A stretch of DNA of 64,000 bases. It comes from Nemertoderma westbladi (lineage: Eukaryota; Animalia; Xenacoelomorpha). Below, piece by piece: positions 1,756-37,402 of the stretch. Numbering within the stretch: the first letter of the stretch is position 1; each line of letters begins with the position of its first letter. The position numbers and the translations under genes are program-made. Below the pieces are notes generated by a model. The model made no database searches and had not been told where the DNA came from. It worked only from the letters and a program-made list of their open reading frames with translations. Where the stretch lies: positions 25,470 to 89,469 of the forward strand of contig JAUCBJ010000603.1 in NCBI GenBank assembly GCA_032718475.1. The letters are read 5' to 3'.

Positions 1756-1865
1756 TAAGTTTTATATTAAAAAGTTTTATTTATTTTCATAAAAGTTTAA
1801 TTTATTTAAAATTTTGTAAAATCATTTAGCTAAAATTCAATATTATCAATTGACATTGCTATATA

Positions 1866-2918
1866 ATGCATAGACATGAAAGTTGTTTGGTTTGTAATAA
1901 AGAAATGAGACAAGACAATTTATCTCGTCATATGGAAACACATGGAAAGGAAAAACTAATGGCTCCATTACCAAAAAAATTTAAAAAATCCGAAGATATT
2001 TTTAGTGAAGATGAAAAGAAAAAGAGAGATGAGCGTGATATATTAAATATAAAACAGACAATGGAAAGTAAATTTCATAAAGTTATGAATATTTTGAAAG
2101 GGATACAAAAACAGTTACCCCTAGAAAATGAGGAAAATTTGAGTGAGAAAGATGGAGAAGAAGAGGATGATGAGATGGAGAATGAAAATAGTGAGGGTCA
2201 GGATGAAGTTGAAGAGAGTGAAGTTGAGAACGAAGAAAGTGAAGATCAGGATGATGATGAAGAAAGTGAAGGTCAAGAAGAGGGTGAAGATAGCGAAGGT
2301 CAGGAAGAGAATGAAGAAAGTGAAGAACAGGAAGAGGATGAAGAAAGTGAAGAACAGGAAGAGGATGAAGAAAGTGAAGGCGGGGAAGAGGATGAAGAAA
2401 GTGAAGGTCAGAAAGAGGGTGAAGAAAGTGAAGATCAGGAAAGTGGAGAAGAGGATGAAAATGATGATAATGAGGAAATAAAGAGGCAATTACTTGGAAA
2501 TAAGAATCAATTGCGGAAAATTATTAAACATTTGAAGGAAAATGAAGAAAATAAAGAGGCGACATTGACCCAAGTCCTAGGAAGTAAAATTAAATTACAG
2601 AAATTTATTAAACATTTAGAAGAGAATGATGAAAATAAAGAAGAGATATTGAGACAAATATTAGGAAACAAAAATCAAATGCGGAAATTTATTAAACAAA
2701 TGGAAGAAAATGAGGAAAATAGAGAAGAGATATTAAGACAGGTTCTGGGAAATAAAAGTAAATTACTGAAAATTAATGAACAATTGAATAAAATTAAGAA
2801 ACAGTTGGGTAATGAGGAAGATGAAAGTAAAGTAAATCAACCAGCTTTTACTAATTTTCGAAGACCTATGATAAAAAACTCTCGTTCAGTATATGCCCGC
2901 GCAGGACGACGCTATTGA
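1866..2918 (+). CDS. Intronless protein: N-terminal C2H2 zinc finger, Glu/Asp-rich 9-aa repeats and C-terminal ~28-aa helical repeats
   Basis: 350-aa ORF with CLVC-x12-HMETH, EEDEESEEQ-like repeats and four EEI(L/K)RQ(I/L/V)LGNK-like repeats; promoter elements upstream. Confidence 0.7.
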   Translation: MHRHESCLVCNKEMRQDNLSRHMETHGKEKLMAPLPKKFKKSEDIFSEDEKKKRDERDILNIKQTMESKFHKVMNILKGIQKQLPLENEENLSEKDGEEEDDEMENENSEGQDEVEESEVENEESEDQDDDEESEGQEEGEDSEGQEENEESEEQEEDEESEEQEEDEESEGGEEDEESEGQKEGEESEDQESGEEDENDDNEEIKRQLLGNKNQLRKIIKHLKENEENKEATLTQVLGSKIKLQKFIKHLEENDENKEEILRQILGNKNQMRKFIKQMEENEENREEILRQVLGNKSKLLKINEQLNKIKKQLGNEEDESKVNQPAFTNFRRPMIKNSRSVYARAGRRY

Positions 2919-6400: not shown

Positions 6401-6858
6401 ACCTGCTAATTTATGTGTCTTATAATGTCTGACAGCCTGTACAAAATATGACCACAGTAGAAGCCAGTCTAGCGCGGCGTATGACCCTCTGTGTGTGGGA
6501 GACTGGATTCTATGGCAGAGAGAGGAGTAGACTAATTTGTATTATTCGATTGGTTTCTACTATATAATCTCCAAAAACTACGTTTATTTTCAGGGAAATA
6601 CCAACAGTTCCTTTCAGGTGCTGCGCTTTAAGTATCACGCAGAGTTATGACTTATACTAATTACAATGGATGGGCATGAGATAACGCAAATGTTTACATT
6701 CTTTATGAATGTATTATTAATCGTACACACTCACGCAACTGACAATAGTACTGAAACACACCAATTTGCCGACTGTTACCAATTTTACTCATATATAAGG
6801 GGAAATTTAGCTCACCTACATTGGGGACTATGAAACAGCATTAACTCCTACAAACCAC

Positions 6859-7422
6859 TGTTATTTGAGCTAGGCAATTGTGACTAGTCTTCCCCTCCGC
6901 TTACCTCAGTAATCAAGAAAACCAAGAGAGTTATTCGTGAGTATTCTCCAAACATTAGCATTAATCAAATTCGGTTACAAACCACAATATATTATATCAG
7001 CATAAAACAGTATATAGTATCAGTATACAGTGTCAACAGTCAGACAGTGCAAGTTTGATAATCAGTGAGAGCAAGTAAGTAAGTTAAGTTAGATTTGCGT
7101 TCTAAGATCTCTCTGGCCACTGATGTTTCTGGGCAAAGTCAGAAAGTCAGAGTGTGACAGAAAGTCACAGGAAGTGAAGATTTGCCGTATTGCATCATTT
7201 TATATATATCACCATGGCATGAATTCGAAAATCGCGCTGATTGCCCGAAATATAACATGAGCTCTACGCATAACGAAACAGCTGAAGATTTCGTCATTTG
7301 CAACTCAATACCAAAACAGACGATAGAGGGCATAAACCTATAAATTCTATAGTGCTATAAAATAATTCTGGCACATTTAGAGTAGTTCGCGAATTGCACA
7401 AAAATGCCACATTTTTGCCCCA
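6859..7422 (-). repeat. 3' LTR of outer BEL/Pao
   Basis: Aligns to 33129-33695 with many substitutions and indels; TG...CA ends; adjacent PPT. Confidence 0.8.
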
Positions 7423-7432
7423 ATCTCCCTCC

Positions 7433-17700: not shown

Positions 17701-18203
17701 AACCAGTCTAACTGTCTACAGATCTCCTGAACCTCATTGGAAAACTCTATGATTTCATTACTAGGGAATTATTATTATTACCATTACTAAAATTTAATTA
17801 ACCTAGTAATCTAGTATGTAACCTAGTAATAAACCTAGTAATTATCATTACTAGGGCTACTAATTTCGCATACAAGTATCTAGCTATGTTAGTCCTATTA
17901 CCACACCTGTTGTTTAGTGTATCCCAAACTTGTCTTAGTCCGTCAGTATGTCCGATGAACTTTAATGCCATCAATTTGCGGGGACCTTCCAAGCACTCGA
18001 TGAGGAATCGTAACTTTTCTCTGTTTGATAATACATAGTTTTGTATGTTGTCCTTATAAATATTCATTAAAAGGCAGCCACTTCAACTCATCTCAGTTAA
18101 ACTTGATGACCTCTCCCATCGTTCTAGCCATCTGACTCGTAAAACTCTCCTGAGCCATCGTATTATTCAATATCAAATTATCCGAATATACATTTCTAGG
18201 ATT
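14745..18203 (-). pseudogene. Outer BEL/Pao gag-pol pseudogene with multiple frameshifts and stops
   Basis: Fragments: KLRFLIECLEG (gag), CVSCEGPHHLSKC knuckle, TLLDSGSTGTFID protease (~16660-16705), KPNKVRVVFDGS / SLNSELL / DIEGMFLQV / LRFLW RT, YMDD, GGFRLTKF and DPLGFISPV. Confidence 0.9.
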
Positions 18204-18208
18204 ATTGT

Positions 18209-18778
18209 TGTGATGGGATCAGTGGATCCCGACCGGTATGTTGTTTATGTACGCGTCCCCGCCGTGTGAATGAAAAAGGGTTCGTTGTTGTTCCGATAAT
18301 GTTGATGAATATAAAATATAGTATATAATGAGCAAACAGATAGCACAGTTGAAGTACAGAATGATCGGTAATATTGAATGTGATGGTGATGGCGATTACG
18401 GTAATAGAATGTTACCGTACTGCCCTAACTGACTGAGCAACTGAGTAAACTGAATGTGTGATGAAACACCGACCGGTAATATACTACACTACATTGGCCT
18501 GTTACTTAGCTGATGCCTTCCTGTCCCCCCATTGGTTGATAACCCAATTCTCGGCTCCCACCTCTGTGGGAGTGTTTCCCCCTGGCTACTGTTACTTTCT
18601 CTCTCCCGGAGGCTTAACCTCTGACCTCCATTGTATACGGCCCTTTGGGGGTTCGTTGCCCCCGTTTATTGGGGGTGGTACGAGGTTGATTGGCAATCAA
18701 CCTCGTGCTTCCCAATATTGCTTAAAGGCACCGTCTCCCAACTTTATGGGGTGGTTAGCGGAATTGAATCCGCTACCA
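18209..18778 (-). repeat. 3' LTR of inner BEL/Pao
   Basis: TG...CA ends; PPT adjacent at 18779-18788; TSD outside. Confidence 0.95.
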
Positions 18779-19482
18779 CTCCCCCTCATGCTATCTTCCC
18801 GGTGAGAAGATAGCATCAACCTCTAGTGCGCTTCAATTCCGCTGGAACCTGATCTACTATCAGGTGTGGGGTGGAGTTATTTTCTTTTCAGAGCCGGCTT
18901 TCCAGGCCGCTCCCTATGGGTGTGATGTCGCTACCCCCTCTTGGTGCAATTTCGTCTACCTTGCACCAAGACATCTGACGTCCCGTGTTGGGCTGATTGT
19001 GGGTTTCTGTCACACAATTTTTGTTTCCCCAACACTCCCTCCACTCTAACTCCACACTAACTAACTCTAACTTCTCCCCCACTCTAGCTCTCGGACCTTC
19101 TTCTCCCTCACTCTACCTCTCACTCCTCCCCCCCACACACTTGAATTGCACTCGCACTCTCTCCGCGCGTTCTATACTCGACCTTCACCCCCAACGCTCT
19201 CGCTCCTGACGGGCCTCACCCTCCCTTCCTGTGCCGTCGCACTCAAGAAGTGTGAAGTCGTCTAGTGTCCTGTTCCGCCATAGTCAATTGGTTCCCAGTC
19301 CCAGTAGATAATTGGAAAAGGTTATATGACTATAGTACTTACTTTGATTATATTTGCTTATTTGACTATACTAATGATTATTACATACGTACATACTAAT
19401 TGCACTTTTAATCAATTAAATTTTTGCACTTAGGAGTTCGTACTTCTCACGTGGTGCCTTCCAGGCATCCCACATCCAAGTT

Positions 19483-20253
19483 CTAGTTCGTCCCACCTGA
19501 CTTTGGGAACCATCTCAACTCCTTCCCCCTGTCGTCCTCCTCCCTCGGTCGTTTCCTGGCCGCTGCCGCTCCCTTGGCCTTATCCCTATTTAAGTTTCTG
19601 ACCCTCGCTGTTACCTCTCTACTTATTCCCGTCATCGACTCCTTGGGTGCTGGTGTTATCAGCTCCCGGTATCGCTTCGTGGGTTGCCCCATCGAATGGC
19701 CCTGTTGTCTCCCCCTAGTGGCATCCCATAGGATCACCTTCATCGCCCGCGGCACATGCACTGCCAAGAAATCTCTGAACTCTCCTCGGTTCTGTGGTGT
19801 CCACCTGTCCAAATACCTCTGCGTATTTATCACCCCGGCATACGACGCCGCCGTTGACACATCCTGCTAGGTAAACGGAAGTCTCCGTCTAATAATCTCC
19901 AGGTGGGCCTCCTGGTTGACACCAAAGAAGCCCCACCGGAACTCCTGGGCCCCCACACGCCGCCGCGTCATGGCACCGACATCGGCCCATTCCTCGAAGA
20001 TCCTAAACCTCTCCCCGTCGTCCATCCAGTCGCACTGGCATCCACAGTGCCCCCGGAAGTCGCACTTAGAACACCGGTTGTGCAACCGTGGACACGCCCC
20101 CATTCTGTGGCTTGACTCGCGGCGGCAGTAGAGACAACTAGTCCCTTTCTGGAATCGGTACAAACAGCTCCTTTCCTGGTGAGTTTGCCTCCCGCAGTAA
20201 TCGCAGCCGAGCACCAATGTCTCCCGCCCCACGTCGTCTTTCGTCCCAAGCAA
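19483..20253 (-). pseudogene. C-terminal part of the cargo ORF: three CCHC-type zinc knuckles and a basic tail
   Basis: CDYCGRQTHQERSC, CLYCRRESSHRMGAC and CSKCDFRGHCGCQC. ORFs 20253-19867 and 19860-19483 are in one frame, separated by a single TAG. Confidence 0.7.
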
Positions 20254-20801
20254 TCTCCTCGGTCCGTGGAGTCACTGGTAAGCGAACTTTTGGACGTTAG
20301 CATCCCTGTCCACGTCTATCTCCTCGCCCCTCCCGGGCATCGTCTCTCCGAATACTACTCGTGGTGCCGTTCCTGGTTGCTCGCCCAACCTGATGGTGCT
20401 CCCCGCAAAATCCATCGCCGGCTCCTCATGCACCCAGCCCGCTTGCCGGATCTATCCCAGAAGGCTCTCGCCCCACTGGCCATCACCACCCTCCCGCCAC
20501 CCCAGTCCGTGTCCGAGTGGCCGATCCTCCCGATGGGCGGCATCTCTCCGAACTTGTCGTCATCCTCGTCCTCCTCTGGGAGTGGTTCCAATCCTGGTAT
20601 CCCGGTGGATCCACTGTGTCCCTTCCCACCTTGGCTCTCACCCGTGATCTTCCATCCTTCCAGCTCCCCCGGTCTCCTCTGCGCGAAATCGCCCTCTGCG
20701 CCCGCTGGTATGGGTGTCGCCTACAATCCCGACTGTTTCGGTGACCCTACCGTCCACCCCAACTCTCGCCCTAGAGACTCGCCCGAACTCCCTGATGATG
20801 T

Positions 20802-22091
20802 TCAACGAAGTTCATCTAAGGCCGCCTGTTCCTCGAACCCGTAGATCTCTGCTCTGGCCGCCTCCTCCCTTTCTTCTGCCTCTCTCCTTTCTTGTCTAGC
20901 GATTTCTTCCAATCGCTTCGCTTCTCGTCTATCCACCTCTAGCTGCTCCCACCTCTGATATGGCGTATCCACATCCCTGTCTACTAGATGTCGGCAGTTA
21001 TAATACACCGACTCGCCCTTCAGCCCCGGGTGGTCTACCAGACCCTCGAAAGCCACTCTGAAGGCTCTTCTGTAGTTCAGGGGTGATCCCGATAGCAAGA
21101 ATGCTGTTGGTTCTCTCTCGATAACCACGGTGATGAATAGGTTTAGCAAACCTATCATTATCCAGTCCTCCTGCAGGATATATCGCTTCTTATATACCTT
21201 TATTGCTCCTCTCCGGAATTGATACACCTCTTGCTTCCCCGGCCTTGCTTCCCACTTCAGCAAGTTTGCCAACTCCGCTCCGTACTCCTCCCTGAATTTA
21301 CCCCAGTCCATTGGTTTGTGGCATATGAGCCCCATTAGCTGGCCCATTGCCACCGCTCCACAATGGCCGGCATTCTCCACTAGTCCCAACCCGTCTGGCG
21401 CTGTCATAGCCATGTAGACCATTTGCGTATCCAGGAGGTTGGAGGTCTCCGGAGCGATGATCCTCTCCGCATTGTCGCGGATCGCCGATCCCACCTTTAT
21501 CGTCGACTTCTCCCTTACTAGACTCTGCACCGCTTTTGGCAGCCGGTTCAATTTTGGCCCGTTCTTCTTCCCATACGTTCCTAGGTCGAATAGGAATATA
21601 TCCCCATTTGGCGCGGCCAAATGCAGGAGTATGGTTCTGGCCGACCCCGCCGACCCTCTTCTCGAACCTTCCTCGTCTTCCACGGTCCCTTCATCGTCTA
21701 GGACCATGTACCCTCCCCTGCTGACGGACTCTACGAACCTCTTCCAATCCTTTCTCGGTGGCTCCTTTGCATACTTCGGTATCCCGAACTTCGCCTCGTC
21801 TCCTTTCACCATGTAGTGGAAATGCTCGAAGATTGCATTGTCTAGCAACGGTGTCCCGTAGGTCCCGAGAGGTCGCTGTTTGTGCACCTCCCTGAAATGG
21901 TCCTGCAGCGCTCGCGCTTTGTGACCCCTCTCTAACCGCTCGTAGTATCCCCTCGTCTTCTCTTCCGGATGCCTCTCGGTGAAGTCCACCAGTATCTCCT
22001 TTCCTCCTAACTCCGCCTTTCTCTTTCTGACCAGTCTCTCCGCCATCTCGAACTCTCCCGATCGCTCACCTATAAGGTGGGGCCTTGCCAA
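20802..22091 (-). CDS. DEDDy-type (WRN/EXD/Mut-7-like) 3'-5' exonuclease-domain cargo ORF
   Basis: MVLDDEG (ExoI D-x-E), LLHLAAPNGDIFLFDL, LPKAVQSLVREKSTIKVGSAIRD, LLDTQ and a possible ExoIII RYILQED. Motif order and spacing match WRN-type exonucleases. Confidence 0.72.
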   Translation of the reverse strand: MARPHLIGERSGEFEMAERLVRKRKAELGGKEILVDFTERHPEEKTRGYYERLERGHKARALQDHFREVHKQRPLGTYGTPLLDNAIFEHFHYMVKGDEAKFGIPKYAKEPPRKDWKRFVESVSRGGYMVLDDEGTVEDEEGSRRGSAGSARTILLHLAAPNGDIFLFDLGTYGKKNGPKLNRLPKAVQSLVREKSTIKVGSAIRDNAERIIAPETSNLLDTQMVYMAMTAPDGLGLVENAGHCGAVAMGQLMGLICHKPMDWGKFREEYGAELANLLKWEARPGKQEVYQFRRGAIKVYKKRYILQEDWIMIGLLNLFITVVIEREPTAFLLSGSPLNYRRAFRVAFEGLVDHPGLKGESVYYNCRHLVDRDVDTPYQRWEQLEVDRREAKRLEEIARQERREAEEREEAARAEIYGFEEQAALDELR

Positions 22092-22479
22092 GGCACAATA
22101 TAAATGAGTGATGCAGTTAGGATGGTCTGTGCAGTTCGATAATGGCCTATCTCACACTATATGTTAGGTTATCGCCTAATTTTCCTACCCTAATTTCCTA
22201 AAGTGCCAAATTCTACCAAATTTCGTAATTCTGTCCGTTACTTAAAATATGTTCTGGAATATTTTTCCCTACTGTTACCATAATTTGTCTAATTTTCTAA
22301 TTTTATTTATTTTAATATTTAATTTAATCCTACTATTGTGCTATCAGTATCTGCCAATGGATTATTCTATTTATAATCCACATTCTGGCCTACTCTGTGG
22401 GATGGTGCAGTACAACAGTATGTGTTGCGTGGCCTACACGATTTATCCAGCTGTACCCACATGCCCCCCTCTCGCTACT

Positions 22480-23262
22480 CATTACTAACTCTACTAACTT
22501 TCCAGCTAATTTCTGCTGACTCTTACTATATACTATATTATACATATCCTCCTACCACTAACTCTTACTGGTAACGGTACTATACGTACCCTCCTACTAA
22601 CTTCTCTACTAACTCCTACTACCGGTACTACGTACCCTCTTACTAACTAGCTCTACAACTAACTCTTACTAACCGGTACTACGTACCCTCTTTCTAACTA
22701 GCTCTACAACTAACTCTTACTAACCGGTACTACGTACCCTCTTACTAACTAACTAACTCCAACTAACTCTTACTAACTGGTACTACGTACCCTCTTACTA
22801 ACTTCTAACTCCACTAACTCTTACTAACCGGTACTACATACCCTCTTACTAACTAACTAACTCCAACTAACGGTACTACGTACCCTCTTACTAACTTCTA
22901 ACTCCACTAACTCTTACTAACCGGTACTACTTACCCTCTTACTAACTAACTAACTCCAACTAACGGTACTACGTACCCTCCTACTAACTAACTAACTCCA
23001 ACTAACGGCACTATGTACCCTCTTACTAACTTCTAACTCCACTAACTCTTACTAACCGGTACTACGTACCCTCTTACTAACTAACTAACTCCAACTAACG
23101 GTACTACGTACCCACTTACTAACTTCTAATTCTTACTGACTTCTATCTGCCTACTTACTTACTGTGTACTTACTATGTACTACTTTCCTTTCTCTTTCTC
23201 TCTTTCTGACTAACTCCAACTAACGGTACTACGTACCCTCTTACTAACTTCTAACTCCTATC
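22480..23262. repeat. Internal minisatellite between pol and the cargo ORF
   Basis: Repeated GGTACTACGTACCCTCTTACTAACT(AACT)nCCAACTAAC units of ~41-53 bp. Confidence 0.9.
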
Positions 23263-23371
23263 TTTCCACCTATCCGGTCTTCTACCGATCGGACTCTTCT
23301 GTCTTCATCGGAGTAAGTGCCCACAACTCTCGCCAATCTCCATTGGTTGTTGATGATGGTATCGTCCGTGA

Positions 23372-26300
23372 TCACCCTCTGATCACCAGATCACCCTCTT
23401 TCAACTCCCTATTTGTATTTCTCCACTTGCTCCTCCTATGAAGCGTGGGTAGATATTCCTCGACCCACCTCCTCCAGTACTCCGCGCTTATCGCCTTAGC
23501 GACTTTCCAACTCTGTCGGGAGTCTATATTGTCTGGGTCTACACCCCGCATGTCGATTGTCGCCGGCCTCTCCATTAGAAAGTGACTGGGCGTCAGCACA
23601 TCTAATGATTCTGGGTCATCATTTTCTGGATATAGCGGTCTGCTATTAATGATACCCTCGCACTTTGCTAGTACCGTCCTTAGTACGTCCTCTGTTACCA
23701 TGTGGGTGTTCATCAACTTCGTCATCAGACGTTTGGAACTGCCCACGAGTCTCTCGACGCATCCTAGAGTATGCGGAGCATACGGCGTCCTCCTGTCCCA
23801 CTTCACCTGTCGTCTTCTCATGGCTGCCCTGACTTCCTCCCCTTCCAGGATGTCCAAGGCCTCTGCCATCTTGTTCTCCGCCCCCACAAAGTTGGTTCCG
23901 TTATCCGAGTATAATACTGCGATTGTCCCACCTTTGCGGTTTCTGAACCTCTCTAGGGCATTGATGAATGCCGATGCGGTTGCGTCTTGGGCGTGTTCTA
24001 TCCCTACCGCCCGCGTGTTATTACATACGAAGATAATGCCGTAGCGCTTCTCCGTGTGCCGCATCACCTTAATCTTTATCGGCCCGAACATATCTACACC
24101 GCAGTGTGTGAATGGCGGGTCATGCTGTCTTACTCTATTGGCCGGTAGTGGCGCCATCTCCTGTATGGCTGGCTCCTTCTTCATCCTCCGGCAGGTCTGG
24201 CACTGCCCCACTACCGCCTTTACCTTCTTCCTTAACTGTTTGACCCAAAAGGTCCTCCGTATCTCCGTGAGGGTTCGGTTGGTGCCCCCATGCAGTATCG
24301 ACTTGTGGGAGTCCCAGATGATCTGGTGCACTATCGGCGATCTATTGGGGATGATGATTGGTTTTGGTGGAATGATGATGCTGTTATTGTTGAGCACCCT
24401 GGAGTTCTTTATTAAAATCCCATCGTCATTGAGTTGTTGCAACAGCGCGATCAGCTCGCTGTCCCGTCGGAGATGCTGTTGTTTACTGATGCGTTCCACC
24501 TCATCGCCGTAGTTTTTTCTTTGTTCGTAGTGGATGACGGCCTTGGCCGCCCCCTCCAGATCGACGTTTGGTTTCTTCTTGATGTCTTGGCCAACCCCCT
24601 TTAGGAAGTTCCCGAAGACTCTCCAGTACGCCACTAACTTCTTGGTCTTGTACCAACTTGAGCTGTAGCTGAGGAGTTTGTCCGTCGGGTTATCGCATAG
24701 TTCTTCCAGTTTTGGTTGCACGTCCCTTATCTCCCTCACCATCTGGCTATATATCTCCTCGCCTTCTGAGTCTCCTCCCTCCTCCTCTAGTGCTACTTCC
24801 TCTGAGCCCGGGTCCTCCTTCTTCATCGGTGGCCAGGCTCTCCTGTCGTTCAGGAATTGTGGCCCGTGCTGCCACAATACTTCCTTCTTCAAGAAAGTGT
24901 GGCGTGCCACGCCCCTCGATAACAAGTCCGCTGGGTTCTCGTCCGTTGGGCAGTAGTGCCACCTTTCCAACTCCGTCATCGCTCTTATTTCGTCCACCCT
25001 ATTTGCGGCGAATATAGGGTATCTCGTCCTTTCATTGTGTAGCCAACCAAGCACTACCATGGAGTCCGTCCAGTAGTGTGTTTCCACTATGTTGGGAATG
25101 GTATCCATCAGATAGGCTGTGGCTCTTACTCCTAATCTCGCAGCTGTCAACTCGAGTTTCGGGACTGATGCTGAATCCGGTGGCGTTGACTTCGCTTTGC
25201 TGAATGCGAGTCTGGGCTTATGAGCCCCCTCTTGTTGTACTAGGTAGAGTGCCGCTCCGTATGCCTCCAATGATGCATCGGAGAACATGTGTAGGTCCAG
25301 ATTCGTCATGTCCCCATCCGGGAAATACACGCGTGGCATGCTGTATATCCCCATCTGTTCTAAACTCTCTGTCCACTTGCACCACTGCTTGCTGATCTCT
25401 TCCGGTACTTCTGTATCCCACTCGTCCTTTAGTTTGTATACTTTCTTAAGTATCTGTTTCCCCGTGACTAATAATGGGGATGCTAGGCCTAGGGGATCAT
25501 ATATCCTCGCTATGTATGACACATAGCCCCTCTTTGTGTGGATGTCTGCGCCCTCCTGGCTCAATTGGTACTTCAATTCGTCTGTCTCTCGGTTCCACAC
25601 GATCCCTAGTGCCTTCTGTTGGGACTCTATCCTCTTGTTCGCCATGTCCTGTCCCTTGGCTGTCGTGGGATTATCCATGGTCGCTTCTGGCCTCCTGTCC
25701 TCTATGGCTTTGATAAATTCTTCCGAACTGGATTGGAACTTGGTCAGGTTGAACCCGGATCCTTTTAGGATGTCGCGAACCTCGCGCCCCGTATCCAGTA
25801 GTTCTTTAACCGTATTTCCAGACTCCATTCCGTCATCTACATAGAAGCCGCGTCGAATCATATCGACGGCTTTAGCGCTGTATCTCTCCTCTTTACCCTC
25901 TACTGTGTTTCTTACAGCCACAGTCGTCGTGAATGAGGACGACTTGGCACCCATATTCTGCACCACCATCTTGTACATCGGTATTGTCAACGGTTCCTCG
26001 TCGCCGTTGTACCATAGGAAGCGCTGACTGTCGCTATCCTCTTCCGTTACACGGACTTGGTTGAACATGCCTTCGATGTCGCAAGTGAAGGCGTGCTTCC
26101 CGTTTCTGAATCTGAGTAAGACCTCGATCCCTGAGTAATAGATGTTGGGACCCTCCAACAGATAATCGTTTAGGCATTTGCCGTTGGTTTTAGCCGATGC
26201 GTCAACTACCATCCGCAGTTTACCTTTCTTCGGATCTAGAGCCACGTGAAGTGGCAGGTAATAGGTCCTGTCCGTGTTCGGTTCATCGACCGGTAACTCC

Positions 26301-28477
26301 ACGGCCCATCCTTTCTCAACATACTTCCTAATTGTCTTATGAATGTACTCATTCTTTTCGAGGCTCCGCTTTAGCGTTTGCTTCAACTTACGAAGCCTCG
26401 TGAGTACCATTCCTTTATTGTCGGGTAGCGGTAGCTTCGGTAGTTTCCATACCATCCCTATGGTATACCGCCCCTCATCGCATGTCATCGATTCCTTTAC
26501 GCTTTGTAAAGCCTGCTTATCCTCCACCGAGGTTCCGACCTCGGTCTCTTTCAATCCCTCAAAATCTTGTCTAAGCAGTCTCCTGAGCTGCTCCTCCACT
26601 CCTTCGTCTTCCATCTCCCGCATAGTTCCTGCGAACATGCACCCTGATGTCTCCGACATCCTAAACGGTATTTTGCTTCTAATTGGGCCGCTCAGCGTCC
26701 ACCCAAATGGTGTCAAGATCGCCACCGGGTCACACTGCCTGTCTTCGCCGAAGACCGTTTGCATTCTCTCGTGGGCCGTCGGGCAGTCCATTCCTACTAT
26801 AATGGATACCTTCCTAACGTCCACCTCTGGGATTGAGAAGTCGATACAGTCCAGGAATTTATATTGTTCGACCTCGATGTTGGTTGGTCGCCTGGCGTTG
26901 ATATTTATCGACTCTATCACCTGGATGGGGTTGATCGTCGTCCCATAATCGCATCCCGGTGCTATCGCTGCTATCCCGCACCATCCAGTCCTCATCTCCA
27001 GGACCTCATCTTTGCTGGAGATGGTTGTCACTGCCATCCTACTTGGCCTCGTCCTCAATCCTATTTCTTCGGCCACCCAATTCTCGACCAACGTGAAGGC
27101 TGCTCCACTGTCGACCAGCATCAGCGTGGTTACTGATCGATCGCCTTCCCCAATCACCCGCACTGGTACTACCCCGAGTAGTGCCATTCCTCTCTTCTTT
27201 GCTCCTACGGTGCTTGTTGCCATCGTCTGTCCTCTGGCTTGACCAAACTTAATTGGCGTCTCCTTGCATTGGTTGGCTCGATGTCCACCCGTCACACATC
27301 GAGAACAAACTTCGTTCCTCCTCGCATATTCTGTCTGATCTTCTCTGGGTAGTGCTTGCCAATATCTGCAATTCATCGTCTGATGAAGTGCGTTCGTGTG
27401 CAATTGGCACTTATTGTTTGGGTTGTAGCCATCCTTGTATAGTGCGCTATGTATCGCACTTGCATTCGTACCTAGGACCCTACTGTTCTTATTACTTGGG
27501 TTCGGCCTACCGGGCGTGTTAGGGTTATGTTTATTTGTGTTGTTATTTTTCCCTTGTCCGCTCCATGGTGCAGCCTTACCCCCGGCTATATGTGGACTAG
27601 CAGTCCGCTGCGTCGCTGCGTATGGCAGCGATTGTCTGAGCTTTGGCAATGCATTCGCCGTGTTGTGTTCTGGTTTCGGCCTATGGTATTCGGTCTTTGG
27701 TCCCTTTCCCAGGCTATCCTCGCTATAGATTGGGTCTGTTATGAGTTCGGCTTCGTAGTTAAGGAAGCTCGACATTTCTTCTAGACCCGGTTCCGCACCC
27801 TTCCTATCTCGAGTGGAGAAAGCGATTTTTCTCCACTTATTGCGCAGCCAAATCGGTAGTGCCTGCGCTATCGTGGTGATGTTATTAGATGCGTTGAGTT
27901 CGTATGGCGCATCCAGCATCTTTAACACGATTAGCGCTTTCTCGACTTTATTCGCAAATGTCTTTATGCTAATGGGATTATCCTGTAGGCCACCCGATGT
28001 TATACCTCTCAGGGTCTGCCGGATGATCTTGGCCGGGTGCCCGTACTCCCTGTCTAGTGCCCGCCATGCTGTCGTGAAGCCACCCTCGATGCCCTGGTGC
28101 TGCCTCACGATGTCGTATGCTGGGCCTCCTGTATACACCTGTAAATATTTTAGGCACTCCGCCTGCGTCAAGTTCTTTGTTAATATTTCATTGCTATACA
28201 TGTGCCGAAACTGCAGGTATTCTTCCGGCCTACTTCCATCGAATTTAAATGGTTCTATGGGTGGTAACTCGATCATGGTTTTTAATGCATCGATCAATGT
28301 AGCCATTCCCATCGCTTGTGCTTCCAATGGGTTCGATGGATGTTGTATAGATTCTCCTGTTGGGTGCGGTCCGCCCATCCTATCTGCTGTCTTTCTTTGC
28401 GTCGGATATATCATAGGGGGTAGCGGCCCCCTCCATATTTCGGTGTCGCATGATCTGCTCTCGTCCAGGGGGTTCAA
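23372..28477 (-). CDS. pol: BEL/Pao Gag-Pol polyprotein (gag, zinc knuckles, protease, RT, RNase H, integrase)
   Basis: 1701-aa open stretch with FKFDGS, CSRCVTGGHRANQC, LVDSGA, TPFGW, YLPLH, LRMVVDAS, YVDD, YDPLGL, HMFSDAS, PKLEL, WTDS, NPADLLSRG, GVDMFGP, SDNGTNFVG, INSRPL and LTPSHFL. The end of the integrase C-terminal domain is frameshifted by a short duplication at ~23370-23385. Confidence 0.96.
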   Translation of the reverse strand: MNPLDESRSCDTEIWRGPLPPMIYPTQRKTADRMGGPHPTGESIQHPSNPLEAQAMGMATLIDALKTMIELPPIEPFKFDGSRPEEYLQFRHMYSNEILTKNLTQAECLKYLQVYTGGPAYDIVRQHQGIEGGFTTAWRALDREYGHPAKIIRQTLRGITSGGLQDNPISIKTFANKVEKALIVLKMLDAPYELNASNNITTIAQALPIWLRNKWRKIAFSTRDRKGAEPGLEEMSSFLNYEAELITDPIYSEDSLGKGPKTEYHRPKPEHNTANALPKLRQSLPYAATQRTASPHIAGGKAAPWSGQGKNNNTNKHNPNTPGRPNPSNKNSRVLGTNASAIHSALYKDGYNPNNKCQLHTNALHQTMNCRYWQALPREDQTEYARRNEVCSRCVTGGHRANQCKETPIKFGQARGQTMATSTVGAKKRGMALLGVVPVRVIGEGDRSVTTLMLVDSGAAFTLVENWVAEEIGLRTRPSRMAVTTISSKDEVLEMRTGWCGIAAIAPGCDYGTTINPIQVIESININARRPTNIEVEQYKFLDCIDFSIPEVDVRKVSIIVGMDCPTAHERMQTVFGEDRQCDPVAILTPFGWTLSGPIRSKIPFRMSETSGCMFAGTMREMEDEGVEEQLRRLLRQDFEGLKETEVGTSVEDKQALQSVKESMTCDEGRYTIGMVWKLPKLPLPDNKGMVLTRLRKLKQTLKRSLEKNEYIHKTIRKYVEKGWAVELPVDEPNTDRTYYLPLHVALDPKKGKLRMVVDASAKTNGKCLNDYLLEGPNIYYSGIEVLLRFRNGKHAFTCDIEGMFNQVRVTEEDSDSQRFLWYNGDEEPLTIPMYKMVVQNMGAKSSSFTTTVAVRNTVEGKEERYSAKAVDMIRRGFYVDDGMESGNTVKELLDTGREVRDILKGSGFNLTKFQSSSEEFIKAIEDRRPEATMDNPTTAKGQDMANKRIESQQKALGIVWNRETDELKYQLSQEGADIHTKRGYVSYIARIYDPLGLASPLLVTGKQILKKVYKLKDEWDTEVPEEISKQWCKWTESLEQMGIYSMPRVYFPDGDMTNLDLHMFSDASLEAYGAALYLVQQEGAHKPRLAFSKAKSTPPDSASVPKLELTAARLGVRATAYLMDTIPNIVETHYWTDSMVVLGWLHNERTRYPIFAANRVDEIRAMTELERWHYCPTDENPADLLSRGVARHTFLKKEVLWQHGPQFLNDRRAWPPMKKEDPGSEEVALEEEGGDSEGEEIYSQMVREIRDVQPKLEELCDNPTDKLLSYSSSWYKTKKLVAYWRVFGNFLKGVGQDIKKKPNVDLEGAAKAVIHYEQRKNYGDEVERISKQQHLRRDSELIALLQQLNDDGILIKNSRVLNNNSIIIPPKPIIIPNRSPIVHQIIWDSHKSILHGGTNRTLTEIRRTFWVKQLRKKVKAVVGQCQTCRRMKKEPAIQEMAPLPANRVRQHDPPFTHCGVDMFGPIKIKVMRHTEKRYGIIFVCNNTRAVGIEHAQDATASAFINALERFRNRKGGTIAVLYSDNGTNFVGAENKMAEALDILEGEEVRAAMRRRQVKWDRRTPYAPHTLGCVERLVGSSKRLMTKLMNTHMVTEDVLRTVLAKCEGIINSRPLYPENDDPESLDVLTPSHFLMERPATIDMRGVDPDNIDSRQSWKVAKAISAEYWRRWVEEYLPTLHRRSKWRNTNRELKEGDLVIRG

Positions 28478-31408
28478 TGTTCTTGTTCCTATTGGAGTAT
28501 ATTGTTGATATTGCGATGGGGGAATGTCACCCTGTCCCCCCCCCCACCGGTGTATTTGATACTGGGGTTGATGTTAATATATTGGGGGCCATGCACCTAT
28601 CCGCAATAACTCTTCCCTCCCCTGGATATATGTTATGCCCTTGCATGCTGTAGTCATACTGCTGTGCTGGTACCGGTATAGGCCTATCCACTTCTGGCCT
28701 ACCTACCGGTATATACTCCGCGACTTCCGGGTTTAATCCCGCCATCCGTGCTACCCTATCACCTACGTTATCTCTTCCAGCATGGCCTATAGTATGTGCA
28801 GTAAGGCCTACAGTATGTCCTGCAATCTGTATGTGTCACTCGGGATCGAAGTTTAACCTTCTCGAATAATCCTCCCCGGAGCTACCGTATTCTCGATCAG
28901 CAGGTATATCCCGTCGGGAAGTTTCTCTTCGATCCCCTCTACTGCTCTCGTCCTCGTACCGGTACACCCTGTACCCCTCTCTTGGCGTGTAGTACGCCTC
29001 GTCAGGTCGCATCTCCCCGGGACGACGGCAATCTCCCAGAGTTCGACCCCACTGACTCTCCGTCTCCATCTCTACTACCGACAGCTCGCTATCCGTCCTC
29101 GCTCTCCTGTCGTTCGCGACGACACTTCTTCTACTCTCTTCCCTTCTTCTCTCTGCAGTACAGTATCCCCGCTTGTGAGATCTCTCGTCGACCTCCCGGT
29201 TAAACTCCACTGTTCTTCTTCCCTCTTCTGATTGGGCTCGATGTCTCGTCGCTCGCCCTCTCGCGACGTCAACCTGTCTCTCTCTGCTCGATCGCACGCC
29301 GCTGGGGATACTCGTAATCCCCCTACTATTCTCCATCGCCGGGTGCTGCGGTTCACCTAATTCGCCCCGCGCATTATCCGCCGACGCCTGTGGGGTACTC
29401 CCTGCCCCCCCCCCCTCTCGCCGCTAATCCCTCATTGTGGGGCTCCTGCAGCCCCCCCCCCCCCCCACTCGCCACCTATCACTTCTCTATCTCTTACTTC
29501 ACTTCTACGCCCCTCTCTAGTCGACGCACTAACTCTACCGCGACTGGGTCTATTCACCCCCGCCTCTCCCTCTGTCACTGTGTTGCCTGGTAGGCTCCCG
29601 TCGGGTTGACTCAACCCCGCTACTCCCTGCGCACTAACTACGTGGCCTACCAGGCCCCTGTCGGGCTCTCTCACCCCTGCCACCTCCTGCCTACTGATTA
29701 CGTGGCCTACCAGGCTCTCATTGGGGTTTCTCACCCCCGTTACTCCCTGCCTACTGACTACGTGGCCTACCAGGCTCTCATTGGGGTTTCTCACCCCCGT
29801 TACTCCCTGCCTACTGACTACGTGGCCTACCAGGCTCTCATTTGCCGGGCCACCTGCGTCCGCCACGTTTATATTAATCTTCTATATCTTCTTTATCTAA
29901 TATTCTTATCTTCTAAATCAATTAAATTATTTTGCACACCTAAATTAGAAACGAGATTATTTTGGTCGTTTGAATTAAGATTGTTATTTGAATTATTTTG
30001 CGTAATTATATTATTTGAATTATTTTGTATATTCGGATTTAAATTATTATTTAAATTATTCGAATTATTTTGTAAATTTATATTAGGGTCGTTCGGATTT
30101 AAATTACTACCATCGGGCAAAATATTATTTCCTGCAATGAAAGTTTGGTTAGGATTATCCACTACGGTACTATTAATATTAACGTCCTCTGCTGTATTAT
30201 TATTATTACCCCCCCCCCCCCCCCCCCGCCCGTACGGTCACACCAGTCTTGGGTCTGTCATCCGGTCCCTGTAAGTGGGATATTGATAAATGTTTCCATA
30301 ACTTCTGGCTCCTCGTAAACACTACCCGAGCCAGCCTCGCTCTCTGACAATCCCATCTGCGCCAGTTCCAGTCGGCGCTTCTGTTTGGCCTGATATTGCA
30401 TAAGCCCCCTTAGCCGGGCATGCATATCATCCCGCACACGTTTTCCCGCTCTCTCCCTCTCCCTATCCTCTCGTAAACTCTGATAGGCTAACTCTGCCTC
30501 TCTCGCAATCCTCTCAAGCCGTCTTGCCTCACGCTCTTTTCGCTCACCCTCTTCTCTCGCCTCCCTCGCCGCCTTGCGCTCTTTATGTTCACTCTGCTCT
30601 CTTGCCTCACTCGCCTCCCTCGCCGCCTCACGCTCTTTACGTTCACTCTGCTCTCTCGCCTCACTCGCCTCCCTCGCCGCCTCACGCTCCTCTCGCTCCT
30701 TCCTTTCCCTCGTTTCTATCTCCTCACACTCCCTAAAATTTCTCGCGACCCTCTCGGCTCGGCCTTCTCTTTGTTCTCTCTAGCCAGTTCTCTCTCCCTT
30801 TCCAATAACGCAGTTCCCTCCTCCAACTCCCTCTCCAACTCCTTTTGGTCTAACGCCACTATATCGAGCTGGCACGCCAGATCGATTTCTAACACCCTTC
30901 TTACTTTTGCAGAGGATGTAGCAGACTTGTCGGTTGCGACGGACTCCCGTCGCCTCCCCGTCCTACTAACTTTCCCCCTCTTTCTGGGGTTCTCAGCGAC
31001 CGACGAGACCGAATCCTCGGGGTTAACCTCAGATTCTCGCTCGTGCGGTCCCGCCCAACCCACTAACTTAATTCCCCTGGCATCCACTAAGTATGGCCCT
31101 ATGTACACTACACCAGGCTCCATACCCCTAGACTGCCACAACTCGAACAGTTCGGTGGCGACCCCTCTCGCTCTTTCACCCGCCAACTCTCCTTGCCCAA
31201 AGCGAACTAGATAGTTAAAATGTTTGTTCGACTCACCTAGTCGCTGATCTAGTTTCACCTGGTCTAGTTTTGCTCCCTCTTTAGCTTCCTTCATCTGCTT
31301 CCTCGTCGCGTTGTAGGCCCGTCGGAGCCGGTCGCTAACTCCGACGTCCTCGTCGCCGACATCCCCTCTTTCTCTCCATGTTCGGCGTCGTACCGGCGGC
31401 CCCACCAT
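28478..31408 (-). pseudogene. Long, broken 5' extension of the inner BEL ORF (coiled-coil, Asn-rich, 20-aa repeats, Arg/Glu-rich)
   Basis: A chain of minus-strand ORFs (31408, 30685, 30162, 29866, 29336, 28745). Several are joined by shifts in G-runs or by a single in-frame TGA at 28836-28838. Confidence 0.55.
29600..29845. repeat. 60-bp tandem repeat, about 4 copies
   Basis: CTACTGACTACGTGGCCTACCAGGCTCTCATTGGGGTTTCTCACCCCCGTTACTCCCTGC; minus strand encodes NESLVGHVVSRQGVTGVRNP. Confidence 0.9.
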
Positions 31409-31717
31409 CGCCGTTCCGGTAGGCCGTCCGTCGCCCTCGGCCTGTGGCTGGCCGGCGACATTGGTACATCGTACGCCCTCGTGCGTCGACTCTTCCTCCC
31501 TCTCTGGTAGATGGCCGCCCTCCGCCTGGGCTATCGGGTCATTCGTGGTCGACGATCCCGGCGTCGTGGGTCGATACCGTCGCGTCGCGGCCTCGCAGAT
31601 CGTTTAGTCCGTATCGTCCGGGGTCCGTGGCGGTGTCGTTTCTCCTTCTTGGCTCATCTTTTATCGGTGGCTGGCAGTCACAGTTTTGATAGTAGGGTGG
31701 ATGGGTAATTCTATTAC

Positions 31718-32552
31718 TGTGACGGGATCAGTGGATCCCAACCGGTATGTGGTTTATGTACGCGTCCCCGCCGTGTGAATGAAAAAGGGTTTGTTGTTGT
31801 TCCGATAATGTTGATGAATATAAAATATAGTATACTAGCAGGCAATACCCGAGGCATGTTACCCAGTATTTCCCGCTACCAGCATATGCCTACTGGAGTA
31901 CTGATACCGGTATAGGCCTACTGACGTACCGGTACCCAGTACTGGTACCGAACGTGAATTATACTTTTCGAAGAGTGGCCTATAACGACCGCTGGTTAAA
32001 GTTATACACACATGCCAAGTCCCAGCGCAATCCTTCTGCCCGTTTTGGAGGAGTTCGAACACAGAGAGAGAGAGAGAATTTGATTTTTATAGGTATAGAT
32101 AATGAGCAAACAGATAGCACAGTTGAAGTACAGAATGATCGGTAATATTGAATGTGATGGTGATGGCGGTTATGGTAATAGAATGTTACCGTACTGCCCT
32201 AACTGACTGAGCAACTGAGTAAACTGAATGTGTGATGAAACACCGACCGGTAATATACTACACTACATTGGCCTGTTACTTAGCTGATGCCTTCCTGTCC
32301 CCCCATTGGTTGATAACCCAATTCTCGGCTCCCACCTCTGTGGGAGTGTTTCCCCCTGGTTACTGTTACTTTCTCTCTCCCGGAGGCTTAACCTCTGACC
32401 TCCATTGTATACGGCCGTTTGGGGGTTCGTTGCCCCCGTTTATTGGGGGTGGTACGAGGTTGATTGGCAATCAACCTCGTGCTTCCCAATATTGCTCAAA
32501 GGCGCCGTCTCCCAACTTTATGGGGTGGTTAGCGGAATTGAATCCGCTAACA
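31718..32552 (-). repeat. 5' LTR of inner BEL/Pao, interrupted by a Helitron
   Basis: Direct repeat of 18209-18778 plus an insertion at 31835-32099. Confidence 0.95.
31835..32099 (-). mobile_element. Non-autonomous Helitron (265 bp)
   Basis: Minus strand begins TCTATACCTATAAAA and ends with an imperfect hairpin plus CTAG. It is inserted precisely between A and T with no TSD; the empty site TAGTATA|TAATGAG is seen in the other LTR. Confidence 0.88.
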
Positions 32553-32557
32553 ATTGT

Positions 32558-33128
32558 TTTTTTATATTTACTACTTTATCTTCCAAACCCTCAACTGGTC
32601 CACGGACCTGGATATATTTTGGGCCAACTGCCTGAGCAGCTTGCCCATCTCCCACCGCCCTTGCTCCATCCACTCAACCGCTGGTGTGGGAGATGCCAAC
32701 GGAGTGGCTGGACGGCCCATCGGGCGATGGGGGACGACCCTTGCCCGAATGATTTATATTCATCGGGCTTACCGCCAACCTGTGATTCAGGGATTTGGCT
32801 ACTGGTGAAGGGAGTATTTGTACTTCCTAAAGGAAATCTAGAATCGGGTTCGAACAGTAAGGGAGCCTCCACTAATGGGGTAGACCACCTAGTTATCTCA
32901 GGCTCGTCTAGAATAGTGGGAAGCCTATCAGATTCGAATACTTGGGTGATTAACTCGGCAGATTTTAAATCTGTGCTCGCCAGTTCTCTTCTCACCGGAG
33001 GGGGCAAGTTGGGCAACTTGCGTCCTATGGGAGCTTGTCTACATCCATTTGAGGTGGATTTGTAACTCCTACATTCTGATTCTGTCGTCGTACCTTCATC
33101 TGAGGTGGTAATATTTGACTGAGAAGGC
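32558..33128 (-). pseudogene. 5' internal region / Pro-rich gag N-terminus of the outer BEL/Pao
   Basis: Lies between the inner element's TSD and the outer 5' LTR; contains minus-strand ORF 33016-32591. Confidence 0.5.
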
Positions 33129-33695
33129 TGTTATTTGAGCTAGGCAATTGTGACTAGTCTTCCCCTCCGCTTACCTCAGTAATCAAGAAAGCCAAGAGAG
33201 TTACCGGTTATTCGTAAGTATTCTCCAAACATTAGCATTAATCAAATAGGTTACAAACCACAATATATTATAACAGCATAAAACAGTATATAGTATGTAG
33301 TGGCAGCAGTGTCAACAGTCAAACAGTGCAAGTTTGATTATCAGTGAGAGCAAGTAAGTAAGTTATTAGATTGGCGTTCTATGATCTCTCTGGCAGCTGA
33401 TGTTTCTGGGCAAAGTCAGAAAGTCCGAGTGTGTCAGGAAGTCACAGGCAGTGAAGATTTGCCGTATTGCGTCATTTTATGTATATCACAAAGGCAGGAA
33501 ATCGAAAATCGCGCTGATTGGCCGAAATATAACATGAGCTCTATGCATAAATAAACAGCTGGCAGATTTCGTCATTTGCAACTCAAAACCAAAACAGACG
33601 CTAGAGGGCATAAGCCTATAAATTCTATAGTGCTATAAAATAATGCTGGCACTTTTAGAGTAGTTCGCGAATTGCACAAAAACATTTTTGCCGCA
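33129..33695 (-). repeat. 5' LTR of outer BEL/Pao
   Basis: Diverged direct repeat of 6859-7422. Confidence 0.8.
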
Positions 33696-33906
33696 AAAGC
33701 TTTAACACATATGCTAAGGCTTCGCTCACTTCGTGGCACGCCCCACAATAAATTAATTAGCTGCGTAGCAGTACAAATACATTGGTTTATGATTAAAGTT
33801 GATTAGCATTGTATTCACTAACATTTATCAATAATGAAAATTAGATACCCAAAATTAGTAAAGAATTAATTGTTGTTAATATCTATGGAACATGTTTTCC
33901 TATTTT

Positions 33907-36033: not shown

Positions 36034-37038
36034 CTAACACGCCCTCAACTGTTTGACATAATCGTAAGAAACTCTAGCACCACTGGACGTTTTTTCTATA
36101 GTCTGGAACTGGTTAGCTTTGACATTAAATGGCCCATACTTCCCGACAGCCTGTTGGAGGATAACTTTTGTATGGGGTGGAACCGCAGCGCAAACTTCGA
36201 TTGTTGTTTCCAGAGACCAGGTCTTAGATGAGGTTGCTGACCACTCCATACCAATTGAGGAAGTCACACTGGCAGAGAAAACTTTCTTAAACCCACCTTC
36301 GACAGTGACTTCGGTACCAATAGATATTGTGTATGAGTGTTCATTAGTAACACTCGTTCCTACAGTCTCCGAGTACTTGCATGACCCTTCACCTGAGCTT
36401 TGCGTGTTGTCGAGGCTGCAAACTGTTACCCAGAAATCGATGGCACCCCAGTCTTCCTTTGTACCAATCTTCCAACCATGGAACTCAGTGTAGCTGGGAT
36501 CGTAATGATCAAAGGACGCTACATTCACTTTCCCTTTTTCGGCCGACGGATGAGCCGTGATGTATTTAAAATGATTTTTCTCCGATTGAATCCATAGTGT
36601 GTCTTCATTAACATTGATGTACATTTTCCATTTCTGATTATCATTTGTTATAGAAAGAGCGTCTCCCTTCACACAATTGTTGCCATAGACGCATACTATC
36701 TCAGGATGGCGTTCCAAATATTTTCCTCGAGCCGTTTTTATTGATACACGATTATAGCCCTCTGGGAGGAATGTTACTTCGTATCTCTCATATCCCGTCA
36801 CACAGTTACTACATTTATTATACAGGAACAAATCGTCATTTGAGGCGGATACGAGTTTTTCATGGTGGGAGATTAAAATGATTTTATCATCACCAACGTT
36901 CAAGGATCCTGAGGCGTCGGCATTCCCAATATGGAACCGCCACAGTTGTTTTTGGCTGGTTACTGGAACTGACCCTTGTGGAGCTCCGAATCCAGGCGCA
37001 AATAAGCCGATTAGTATGAAAGCAAAAATATTGTGCAT
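36034..37038 (-). CDS. Secreted protein: fascin/beta-trefoil-like N-domain plus aerolysin/ETX-MTX2-like beta-pore-forming C-domain
   Basis: Intact 334-aa single-exon ORF. Signal peptide MHNIFAFILIGLFAPGFGA; fascin-like motifs VSIKTARGKYL, NQKWKM and LWIQSEKNHFKYITA; Ser/Thr-rich alternating beta region YSETVGTSVT...ISIGTEVTVEGGFKKVFSASVTSSIGMEWS...TW; VPP...V.LQQ motif. Confidence 0.75.
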   Translation of the reverse strand: MHNIFAFILIGLFAPGFGAPQGSVPVTSQKQLWRFHIGNADASGSLNVGDDKIILISHHEKLVSASNDDLFLYNKCSNCVTGYERYEVTFLPEGYNRVSIKTARGKYLERHPEIVCVYGNNCVKGDALSITNDNQKWKMYINVNEDTLWIQSEKNHFKYITAHPSAEKGKVNVASFDHYDPSYTEFHGWKIGTKEDWGAIDFWVTVCSLDNTQSSGEGSCKYSETVGTSVTNEHSYTISIGTEVTVEGGFKKVFSASVTSSIGMEWSATSSKTWSLETTIEVCAAVPPHTKVILQQAVGKYGPFNVKANQFQTIEKTSSGARVSYDYVKQLRAC

Positions 37039-37402
37039 TTTATAATATGTGTCGCTGATATGGTTCGTATCTTACGATATGGGTAGTATCTGTGTAAGTC
37101 GCTGATATGGTTACTATCCTAAAGTATTTAGTACTGTAGTAGTTATTGTATGTGATATGGATGGCTTTACAGAGCTGTGGGATGCCACTACTGTCATGGA
37201 CACAGTGGCATCCCAAGCGAGTAGATAATGGCGATTCGAAGGTGCTAGGTTCACACCTTCCACACATTTACTGTTGCCCAGTGGTTCCATGGCCGAATGC
37301 CTAGCAATTACAGTATATCGTTGACCATAGCGTGTATGTGATGATGTTTTGCATTATGCTTACAGGGTAGACATCGAAGATTAAGTAAGTCTCAAGATAT
37401 TA

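Follow-up and report, generated by a model that had tools for sequence, protein, structure and literature searches.

The closest described counterparts of the gene reported here are the third open reading frames (ORF3s) of rotifer retroelements. The Juno, Vesta and Athena elements carry ORF3s of the DEDDy type, whose DEED residues are intact and whose function is untested (PMC5408684), and a DEDDy ORF3 is likewise described for Athena/Terminon elements in the accessible part of PMC6431247. We analyzed a 64-kb stretch of the Nemertoderma westbladi genome (contig JAUCBJ010000603.1, positions 25,470 to 89,469; hereafter the window, whose own numbering is used throughout), which contains a 14.3-kb retrotransposon of the BEL/Pao type, located on the minus strand (32552-18209). 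Between its pol gene and its 3′ long terminal repeat (LTR) lies an additional coding block, with a likely DEDDy-like domain followed by three CCHC zinc knuckles.

BEL/Pao elements are described as 4.2-10 kb long, encoding gag, pol and at times env, and primed by tRNA-Arg or tRNA-Gly (PMC8742986; accessible part of PMC3118150). Two host proteins show what a DEDDy fold may do besides hydrolysis. The EXO domain of Egalitarian (Egl) keeps all four acids, yet binds RNA without needing them (bioRxiv 10.1101/2025.08.03.668247, accessible part), while EXD1 has lost most of the acids and serves piRNA biogenesis as an RNA adaptor (PMC4712191, accessible part). The first-pass annotation of the window had pointed to a rotifer precedent for DEDDy genes in retrotransposons, which can be traced to the Juno/Vesta ORF3s (PMC5408684).

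We propose, with a probability of about 0.4, that the extra gene of the BEL/Pao element likely encoded a single protein of ~850 amino acids (aa), composed of a DEDDy-fold domain, the active site of which is likely weakened or dead, and of three CCHC knuckles; the protein would have bound and chaperoned the element's own RNA.

The extra coding block and its probable DEDDy-like domain

The block extends over positions 22046-19483 of the element's sense strand (~850 codons) and contains, in this order, the likely DEDDy domain (within the first 414 codons), a linker of acidic character, the three CCHC knuckles and a tail rich in basic residues:

20802..22046, minus strand: first part of the cargo gene, a 414-aa ORF counted from its ATG; the frame is open from 22151
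21111..21737, minus strand: likely DEDDy/DnaQ-like domain, residues 104-312 (Atlas, own profile, alignment, block order, guided model)
20460..20801, minus strand: linker of the cargo gene, read in the exonuclease frame and partly acidic; interrupted by the stop at 20723-20721, with a change of frame near 20424-20481
20032..20205, minus strand: three CCHC zinc knuckles; a stop (20274-20272) lies upstream in the same frame
19483..19869, minus strand: basic tail in the knuckle frame, behind the TAG at 19869-19867; final stop at 19485-19483

The 3′ end of the block is placed ~700 bp upstream of the polypurine tract (PPT; 18787-18779). Its longest open frame comprises 449 codons, compared with 308 in 300 dinucleotide shuffles of region 18779-22480, and a triple knuckle was found in none of these shuffles. 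The knuckles (20205-20164, 20136-20092 and 20073-20032) have the spacings CX2CX4HX4C, CX2CX5HX4C and CX2CX4HX4C, respectively, i.e. two of the three fit CX2CX4HX4C exactly and one contains one extra residue. The knuckle region matches Pfam zf-CCHC_4 under the cut-off, and a word search at longer lengths identified no sequence relatives of the knuckle piece.

With stops treated as neutral, a codon model derived from the pol of the same element favours the exonuclease frame between 22046 and ~20460, across the stops at 20804 and 20723, and then the knuckle frame from ~20460 to 19483, across those at 20274 and 19869. The reading frames suggest that the exonuclease-like part and the knuckles were likely fused in one protein of ~850 aa. 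In the analyzed copy this gene is interrupted five times, by the four stops and by the frame change near 20424-20481; the copy is decayed and unable to make the whole protein. Some details of the first-pass annotation had to be revised. Its 429-aa ORF is real, but that length is counted from a TTG at 22091, and the first ATG (22046) gives 414 aa. The acidic linker, previously assigned to an overlapping frame running from ~20810 to a stop at 20355, belongs to the exonuclease frame, behind the stop at 20723-20721, and the frame opening near 20811 ends at 20640. The three knuckles and the TAG interrupting the downstream frame were correctly recognized, this TAG being one of five breaks in the block.

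The maximum hydropathy over 19 residues (1.59) falls within the predicted last helix of the domain and values elsewhere do not exceed 0.7, which indicates that there is no membrane segment. An env identity of the block was rejected, given this result and the lack of a family match in Pfam.

The fold of the domain is, very probably, of the DEDDy/DnaQ-like type. This assignment is supported by two lines that are independent of any structure model. The first is provided by the ESM Atlas, in which residues 95-345 yielded 25 hits (out of 30) within the DNA_pol_A_exo1 set. The best of these scored 0.93 (178 of 256 features; the family is assigned to 50% of its cluster members). The ten best named hits belong to one family or clan; the top three hits (0.93-0.95) are unnamed clusters of 213-214 aa. 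The second line is a profile of our own, built from 40 of the PF01612 matches from 61 bacterial genomes. The 414-aa protein scored 8.5 bits against it (E 6e-5), above all 501 controls (500 shuffles plus the sequence in reverse; maximum 5.7), and ranked first among 77 ORFs of the window (next 0.8). With one half-profile of 20 sequences the score was 2.8 bits, which no control reached.

An ordered four-block test landed on VLDDEG, LLHLA, KVGSAIRDN and RYILQED, in this order, and 4 of 300 shuffles scored as high. This result was obtained with a second setting (all 40 sequences, anchor and weighting changed); with the first, which had a faulty ExoIII anchor, 29 of 400 were as high. All seven peptide motifs quoted in the first-pass annotation are present in the minus-strand ORF, between 21704 and 21165, and the DnaQ-like domain proposed there is supported by the Atlas, the profile, the alignment and the block order, Pfam itself being blank.

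A structure model guided by a 41-row alignment (bacterial DEDDy sequences plus the cargo) reached a pLDDT of 71 (82-92 in the ExoI strand and in the ExoII segment) and matches DnaQ-type folds only. Foldseek lists Egl and EXD2 first, and the VIA-align Z-scores are 12.9 for diDNase, 11.9-12.1 for RNase D, 11.6 for WRN, 11.2 for Nibbler, 11.1 for EXD1 and 10.9 for Egl. The structural matches (Z 11-13, rmsd 3.0-3.6, 144-166 residues aligned) share 14-16% identity in the case of Egl/EXD1-type proteins. The fold hits are tied across the DEDDy groups; they single out no group as the closest and give no preference to Mut-7/EXD1/Egl.

Residues D117 and E119 (ExoI), K184 and Y289 (the ExoIII Tyr) occupy invariant columns of the 41-row alignment. 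The nearly invariant Asp column of ExoII holds N192, with D191 just before it and no gap nearby, and the Asp column of ExoIII holds E293, followed by D294; thus, the acid columns of this copy read D-E-N-E plus Tyr. The alignment agrees, for this copy, with the earlier remark that the ExoII and ExoIII acids are altered. Loss of the ExoII Asp usually cripples DEDD enzymes. The active site is likely weakened or dead, and we consider the domain a probable DEDDy-fold derivative rather than an active member, as this Asp is replaced in the copy at hand.

It is possible, if doubtful, that the protein was instead an active 3′-5′ exonuclease that trimmed the RNA, the RNA primer or the cDNA ends of the element, with the knuckles serving as a substrate clamp and the odd residues resulting from an alignment shift or damage. 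Such an enzyme would fit the retained ExoI acids and Y289, as well as the Asp located one residue from each of the other two columns. It would also find a parallel in the rotifer ORF3s, which keep their catalytic residues (the DEED variant) and have been proposed to process 3′ ends. Moreover, the element has an LTR-complementary primer site in place of a TGG-type one, and its primer might need trimming. The gap-free Asn in the ExoII column, and the usual effect of losing the Asp, nevertheless speak against catalysis.

In the RNA-binding function that we prefer, the gene would be expressed from its own shorter transcript, since the block starts 1.3 kb behind the pol frame and there is no in-frame access from pol; the TATA-like word near 22375 and the internal purine tract with its TG (22473-22460), possible relics of an older 3′ end, may relate to that separate transcript. 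The DEDDy pocket would hold RNA 3′ ends, as in Egalitarian/EXD1, with no catalysis needed, and the knuckles and the basic tail would add nucleocapsid-like binding to single strands. Together, they could protect the RNA of the element or route it into particles, and this role would keep the gene under selection in transposing copies. On this best reading, the knuckle-fused protein would have been an RNA-binding helper for the element's own RNA.

A related but unlikely explanation is that the protein acted as a counter-silencing decoy. The BEL/Pao lineage would then have built its own factor from a pseudo-exonuclease and three knuckles, which would mimic EXD1-type adaptors or other host DEDDy small-RNA proteins (Nibbler/Mut-7), tie up piRNA precursors or the partners of these proteins, jam small-RNA silencing and aid a high copy number. 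EXD1, an inactive DEDD protein acting as an RNA adaptor in piRNA biogenesis, provides a model, the family has many copies (see below), and Egl and EXD2 head the Foldseek list even though the guiding alignment is bacterial. On the other hand, the VIA-align Z-scores are spread over many DEDDy groups, and no partner-binding domain comparable to the Lsm domain of EXD1 was seen.

Sister copies, selection and the integrity of the gene

Three public DNA runs (X1-X3), originating from two studies, contain 26-30% of the sampled words; no RNA run was among those matching the sampled words, which says nothing on expression. When X1-X3 were compared with region 17900-32700, all five bins over the block were covered. 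The summed depth in X1 was 7209-32312 over the block versus 10308-51232 over pol, in the same range in X1-X3, and each listed cargo site was represented by 9-50 contigs per run. The family is multi-copy and the block is present in many sister copies, as judged from the many variant contigs (the depth itself is no copy number). At the first stop (20804), all covering contigs (21, 18 and 33 in X1-X3, respectively) differ from the analyzed copy, so this stop is private to it.

Of 2184 differences, 40 were listed, a selection made by the tool; 11 of these lie within the 414-codon ORF, in one part of which they cluster. At the six sites where the contigs clearly disagree with one another, the variation is always synonymous and in the third position. 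A seventh, near-fixed site is also synonymous, and the remaining four are non-synonymous and near-fixed in their difference from the analyzed copy. In run X5, which comes from a third study, the ORF region is represented by two pieces (407 bp with 50 differences and 414 bp with 51), ~12% diverged without a single gap. Its pol pieces contain 46 differences in 333 bp with no gap and 98 in 810 bp with one gap, and an LTR piece has 12 gaps; the block hence diverges at the same rate as pol. There are signs of purifying selection on the exonuclease part (a hint rather than a dN/dS estimate). The first-pass placement of the cargo inside the element is supported by the matching LTRs on either side of the block, and the contigs show the block in sister copies.

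Several results weigh against our reading and concern three subjects. (i) The fold: the other half of the profile (20 short RNase-D-like proteins) gave no separation, with 80 of 501 controls as high; hhalign against two small alignments returned a probability under 1%; neither the 414-aa protein nor the domain matched Pfam, NCBIfam, PHROG or PDB sequences; and phmmer found no match to the domain among 1.84 billion representatives. The unguided single-sequence AlphaFold model is unusable (pLDDT 34), and the guided one is partly circular, being built on the DEDDy alignment. (ii) The active site: the residue states were read from this decayed copy alone, and the Asn and Glu may be private to it. 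(iii) The integrity of the gene: the block contains four stops against 0.86 expected at the LTR-derived rate since insertion (P about 0.012), whereas the 1733 codons of the pol frame are free of stops, although 1.65 would be expected there. In view of this excess, some breaks may predate the insertion or be common to the family, and the 3′ half may be decaying or separate. In addition, no contig joins pol with the cargo in another copy.

Further searches with the cargo protein detected no relative of the 414-aa protein (word search, near and longer lengths), two chance hits only (tblastn against plasmids) and no match (metagenome and viral contigs). A metagenome search with pol identified three loci. 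Of these, L004 alone is long; it is a BEL/Pao element, distant and compact, in which pol is followed by 186 bases and no cargo is present.

The stop excess is an argument for regarding the block as two units, one being a gene of ~440 aa that is exonuclease-like and under selection, the other a knuckle gene that is separate or decaying; some of the stops would then be real ends or old family-wide lesions. All the breaks are located in the 3′ half, where the codon scores are about half those of the exonuclease part, and the X1 depth is lowest over the tail bin. We nonetheless consider this division improbable. The coding signal crosses both upstream stops without a non-coding gap, the linker lacks Met for ~60 codons after the second stop, and the sole checkable break is private to this copy. 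The earlier claim of one ~850-aa protein is supported as far as the continuous coding signal over ~850 codons is concerned; of the five breaks, only one was seen to be absent from sister contigs. That the domain is not DnaQ-like, or that the block is an unrelated nested insertion, is very improbable: the blank library searches and the internal PPT-like tract with TG just upstream of the block would suit such an origin, but the Atlas, profile and block-order results, the lack of terminal repeats around the block (for which a nested insertion was disfavoured), the equal divergence of block and pol in X5 and the joints between contigs (none of the 15 listed, of 174, skips the block) oppose it.

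The carrier element and its surroundings

The main features of the carrier, in addition to the block, are the following:

32553..32557, minus strand: target-site duplication, 5′ copy ACAAT (sequence inspection)
31718..32552, minus strand: 5′ LTR (TG...CA), split by a 265-bp insert (LTR alignment, self-blast)
31835..32099, minus strand: 265-bp insert within the 5′ LTR, starting with TC and ending with CTAG
31708..31717, minus strand: primer-site position, with no initial TGG (base-pairing check)
31717-31704, 32184-32175 and 18410-18401, minus strand: primer-site region and the LTR sites complementary to it
28574..31603, minus strand: broken coding stretch upstream of gag-pol, with coiled-coil-like and low-complexity pieces
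23372..28573, minus strand: gag-pol open frame, 1733 aa, with DUF1759, protease, reverse transcriptase, Peptidase_A17/RNase H, integrase and DUF5641 (Pfam)
22552..23258, no strand assigned: tandem repeat array downstream of pol
22460..22473, minus strand: internal purine tract then TG, after the tandem array behind pol (sequence inspection)
18779..18787, minus strand: PPT, before the 3′ LTR
18209..18778, minus strand: 3′ LTR, 570 bp (TG...CA) (self-blast, LTR alignment)
18204..18208, minus strand: target-site duplication, 3′ copy ACAAT (sequence inspection)

The two LTRs are identical at 558 of 569 aligned bases (98.1%, the 265-bp insert in the 5′ copy being set aside), the pentamer ACAAT is present on both outer flanks as a 5-bp target-site duplication (TSD), and a purine tract precedes the 3′ LTR. 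The whole 14.3-kb unit therefore moved as one piece, and recently (~1% change per LTR). DUF1759, Peptidase_A17 (E 4e-41) and DUF5641 all exceed the Pfam cut-off and occur in BEL/Pao order. By the predicted domain set and order of its pol the element is a member of BEL/Pao (Belpaoviridae), as proposed in the first-pass annotation; gag and pol are enclosed by LTRs of the 0.2-1.2 kb class, with a PPT preceding the 3′ LTR. The DUF5641 domain, at the C-terminus of the integrase, is truncated by a frame change (23400-23260 of the window, minus strand).

Gag (27409-27270, minus strand) contains two Cys-His boxes only; BEL/Pao Gag proteins usually have three. The ~3-kb broken coding region at 31603-28574 (minus strand) includes coiled-coil-like, Asn-rich and 60-bp-repeat parts. 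Several of its breaks coincide with long G runs and may be assembly errors; three of its pieces were scanned with Pfam, with no informative match. An Rfam scan of 18000-33000 gave no match.

The purine tract and TG at 22473-22460 look like a relic PPT/LTR junction and may mark an ancestral 3′ end, dating from before the cargo block joined the element. The region that follows (22080-22470) shows no similarity to any LTR in the window. The 265-bp insert in the 5′ LTR sits between A and T, without a target duplication. TC...CTAG ends between A and T are presumably a Helitron-like signature, and the insert looks like a non-autonomous Helitron-like element.

The first 10 nt after the 5′ LTR are perfectly complementary to LTR positions 369-378 (39 of 20000 LTR shuffles). 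Four further pairs form past a bulge, and a stem joins the LTR end (U5) to the leader, enclosing the site. This LTR-complementary primer site, observed in one copy, resembles the self-priming of Tf1/Tj1 as presented in the accessible part of PMC4600332; self-priming of this kind in BEL/Pao was not found in a literature search of titles and abstract openings.

The unit and an adjoining gypsy-like element (LTRs near 7609 and 14324, 98% alike) are both enclosed by an older BEL/Pao-like element, which is broken and the likely LTRs of which (33128-33696 and 6858-7423) are 90.6% alike; region 6858-33696 is thus a nest of LTR elements. Three other frames were observed in the window: (i) an intron-less frame of 345 codons (36034-37071, minus strand), with a signal-peptide-like start, a Ser/Thr-alternating C-terminal half and a weak ETX_MTX2 match (E 0.059, under the cut-off), which looks like a beta-pore-forming protein, (ii) a 577-aa non-LTR reverse transcriptase frame (41026-42759, plus strand), RTE-like by eye, and (iii) a 354-aa frame (1854-2918, plus strand), which combines a C2H2-like finger with helical repeats and an acidic repeat of some length, and which adjoins a 22-bp palindromic tandem array.

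Comparison with known systems

A full-text literature search, which left most subscription papers and Repbase uncovered, revealed neither a BEL/Pao element with a DEDDy gene nor a fusion of exonuclease and knuckles, although a database entry may exist; the outcome was the same for term look-ups in the accessible parts of PMC6431247, PMC6338049, PMC13524379, PMC12440569 and PMC11673190. A DEDDy third gene is known from rotifers, and a BEL/Pao carrier and a knuckle fusion were not found in print.

The carrier shares with Belpaoviridae its LTRs, the PR-RT-RH-IN order, the BEL/Pao Pfam signatures, the PPT and the 5-bp TSD. It differs from the described members of this family in its length (14.3 kb), its non-env third gene, the ~3 kb of extra 5′ coding sequence and the lack of a TGG-type primer site. 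The knuckles resemble the tandem CCHC motifs of GIS2, HEXBP and AIR2-like proteins; these are names of Atlas clusters with scores of up to 0.86, which serve as leads only.

Like the ORF3s of Juno and Vesta, the extra gene is a separate, non-env ORF located downstream of pol and inside the LTRs, with a DEDDy-like domain and no membrane segment. Unlike in Juno and Vesta, its carrier is a BEL/Pao element (the whole word BEL is absent from PMC5408684). Moreover, the acid columns read D-E-N-E instead of the intact DEED of the rotifer proteins, and the gene comprises ~850 codons. No triple-knuckle fusion is described for the rotifer ORF3s, one of which is fused with GDSL (PMC5408684). That a selected, multi-copy DEDDy gene occurs in another LTR family suggests that this fold has been captured repeatedly, and it makes the role of such third genes testable in a family with many natural variants.

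The likeness to Egl and EXD1 concerns a DEDDy fold that binds RNA, for which catalysis is dispensable (Egl) or absent (EXD1); both are, in contrast to the cargo, encoded by the host and combined with different partner domains (Lsm, EHD). The changed acids and the knuckles of the BEL/Pao gene bear on the question of whether such genes encode enzymes or RNA-binding adaptors, and also on whether retrotransposons of animals encode proteins directed against small-RNA silencing.

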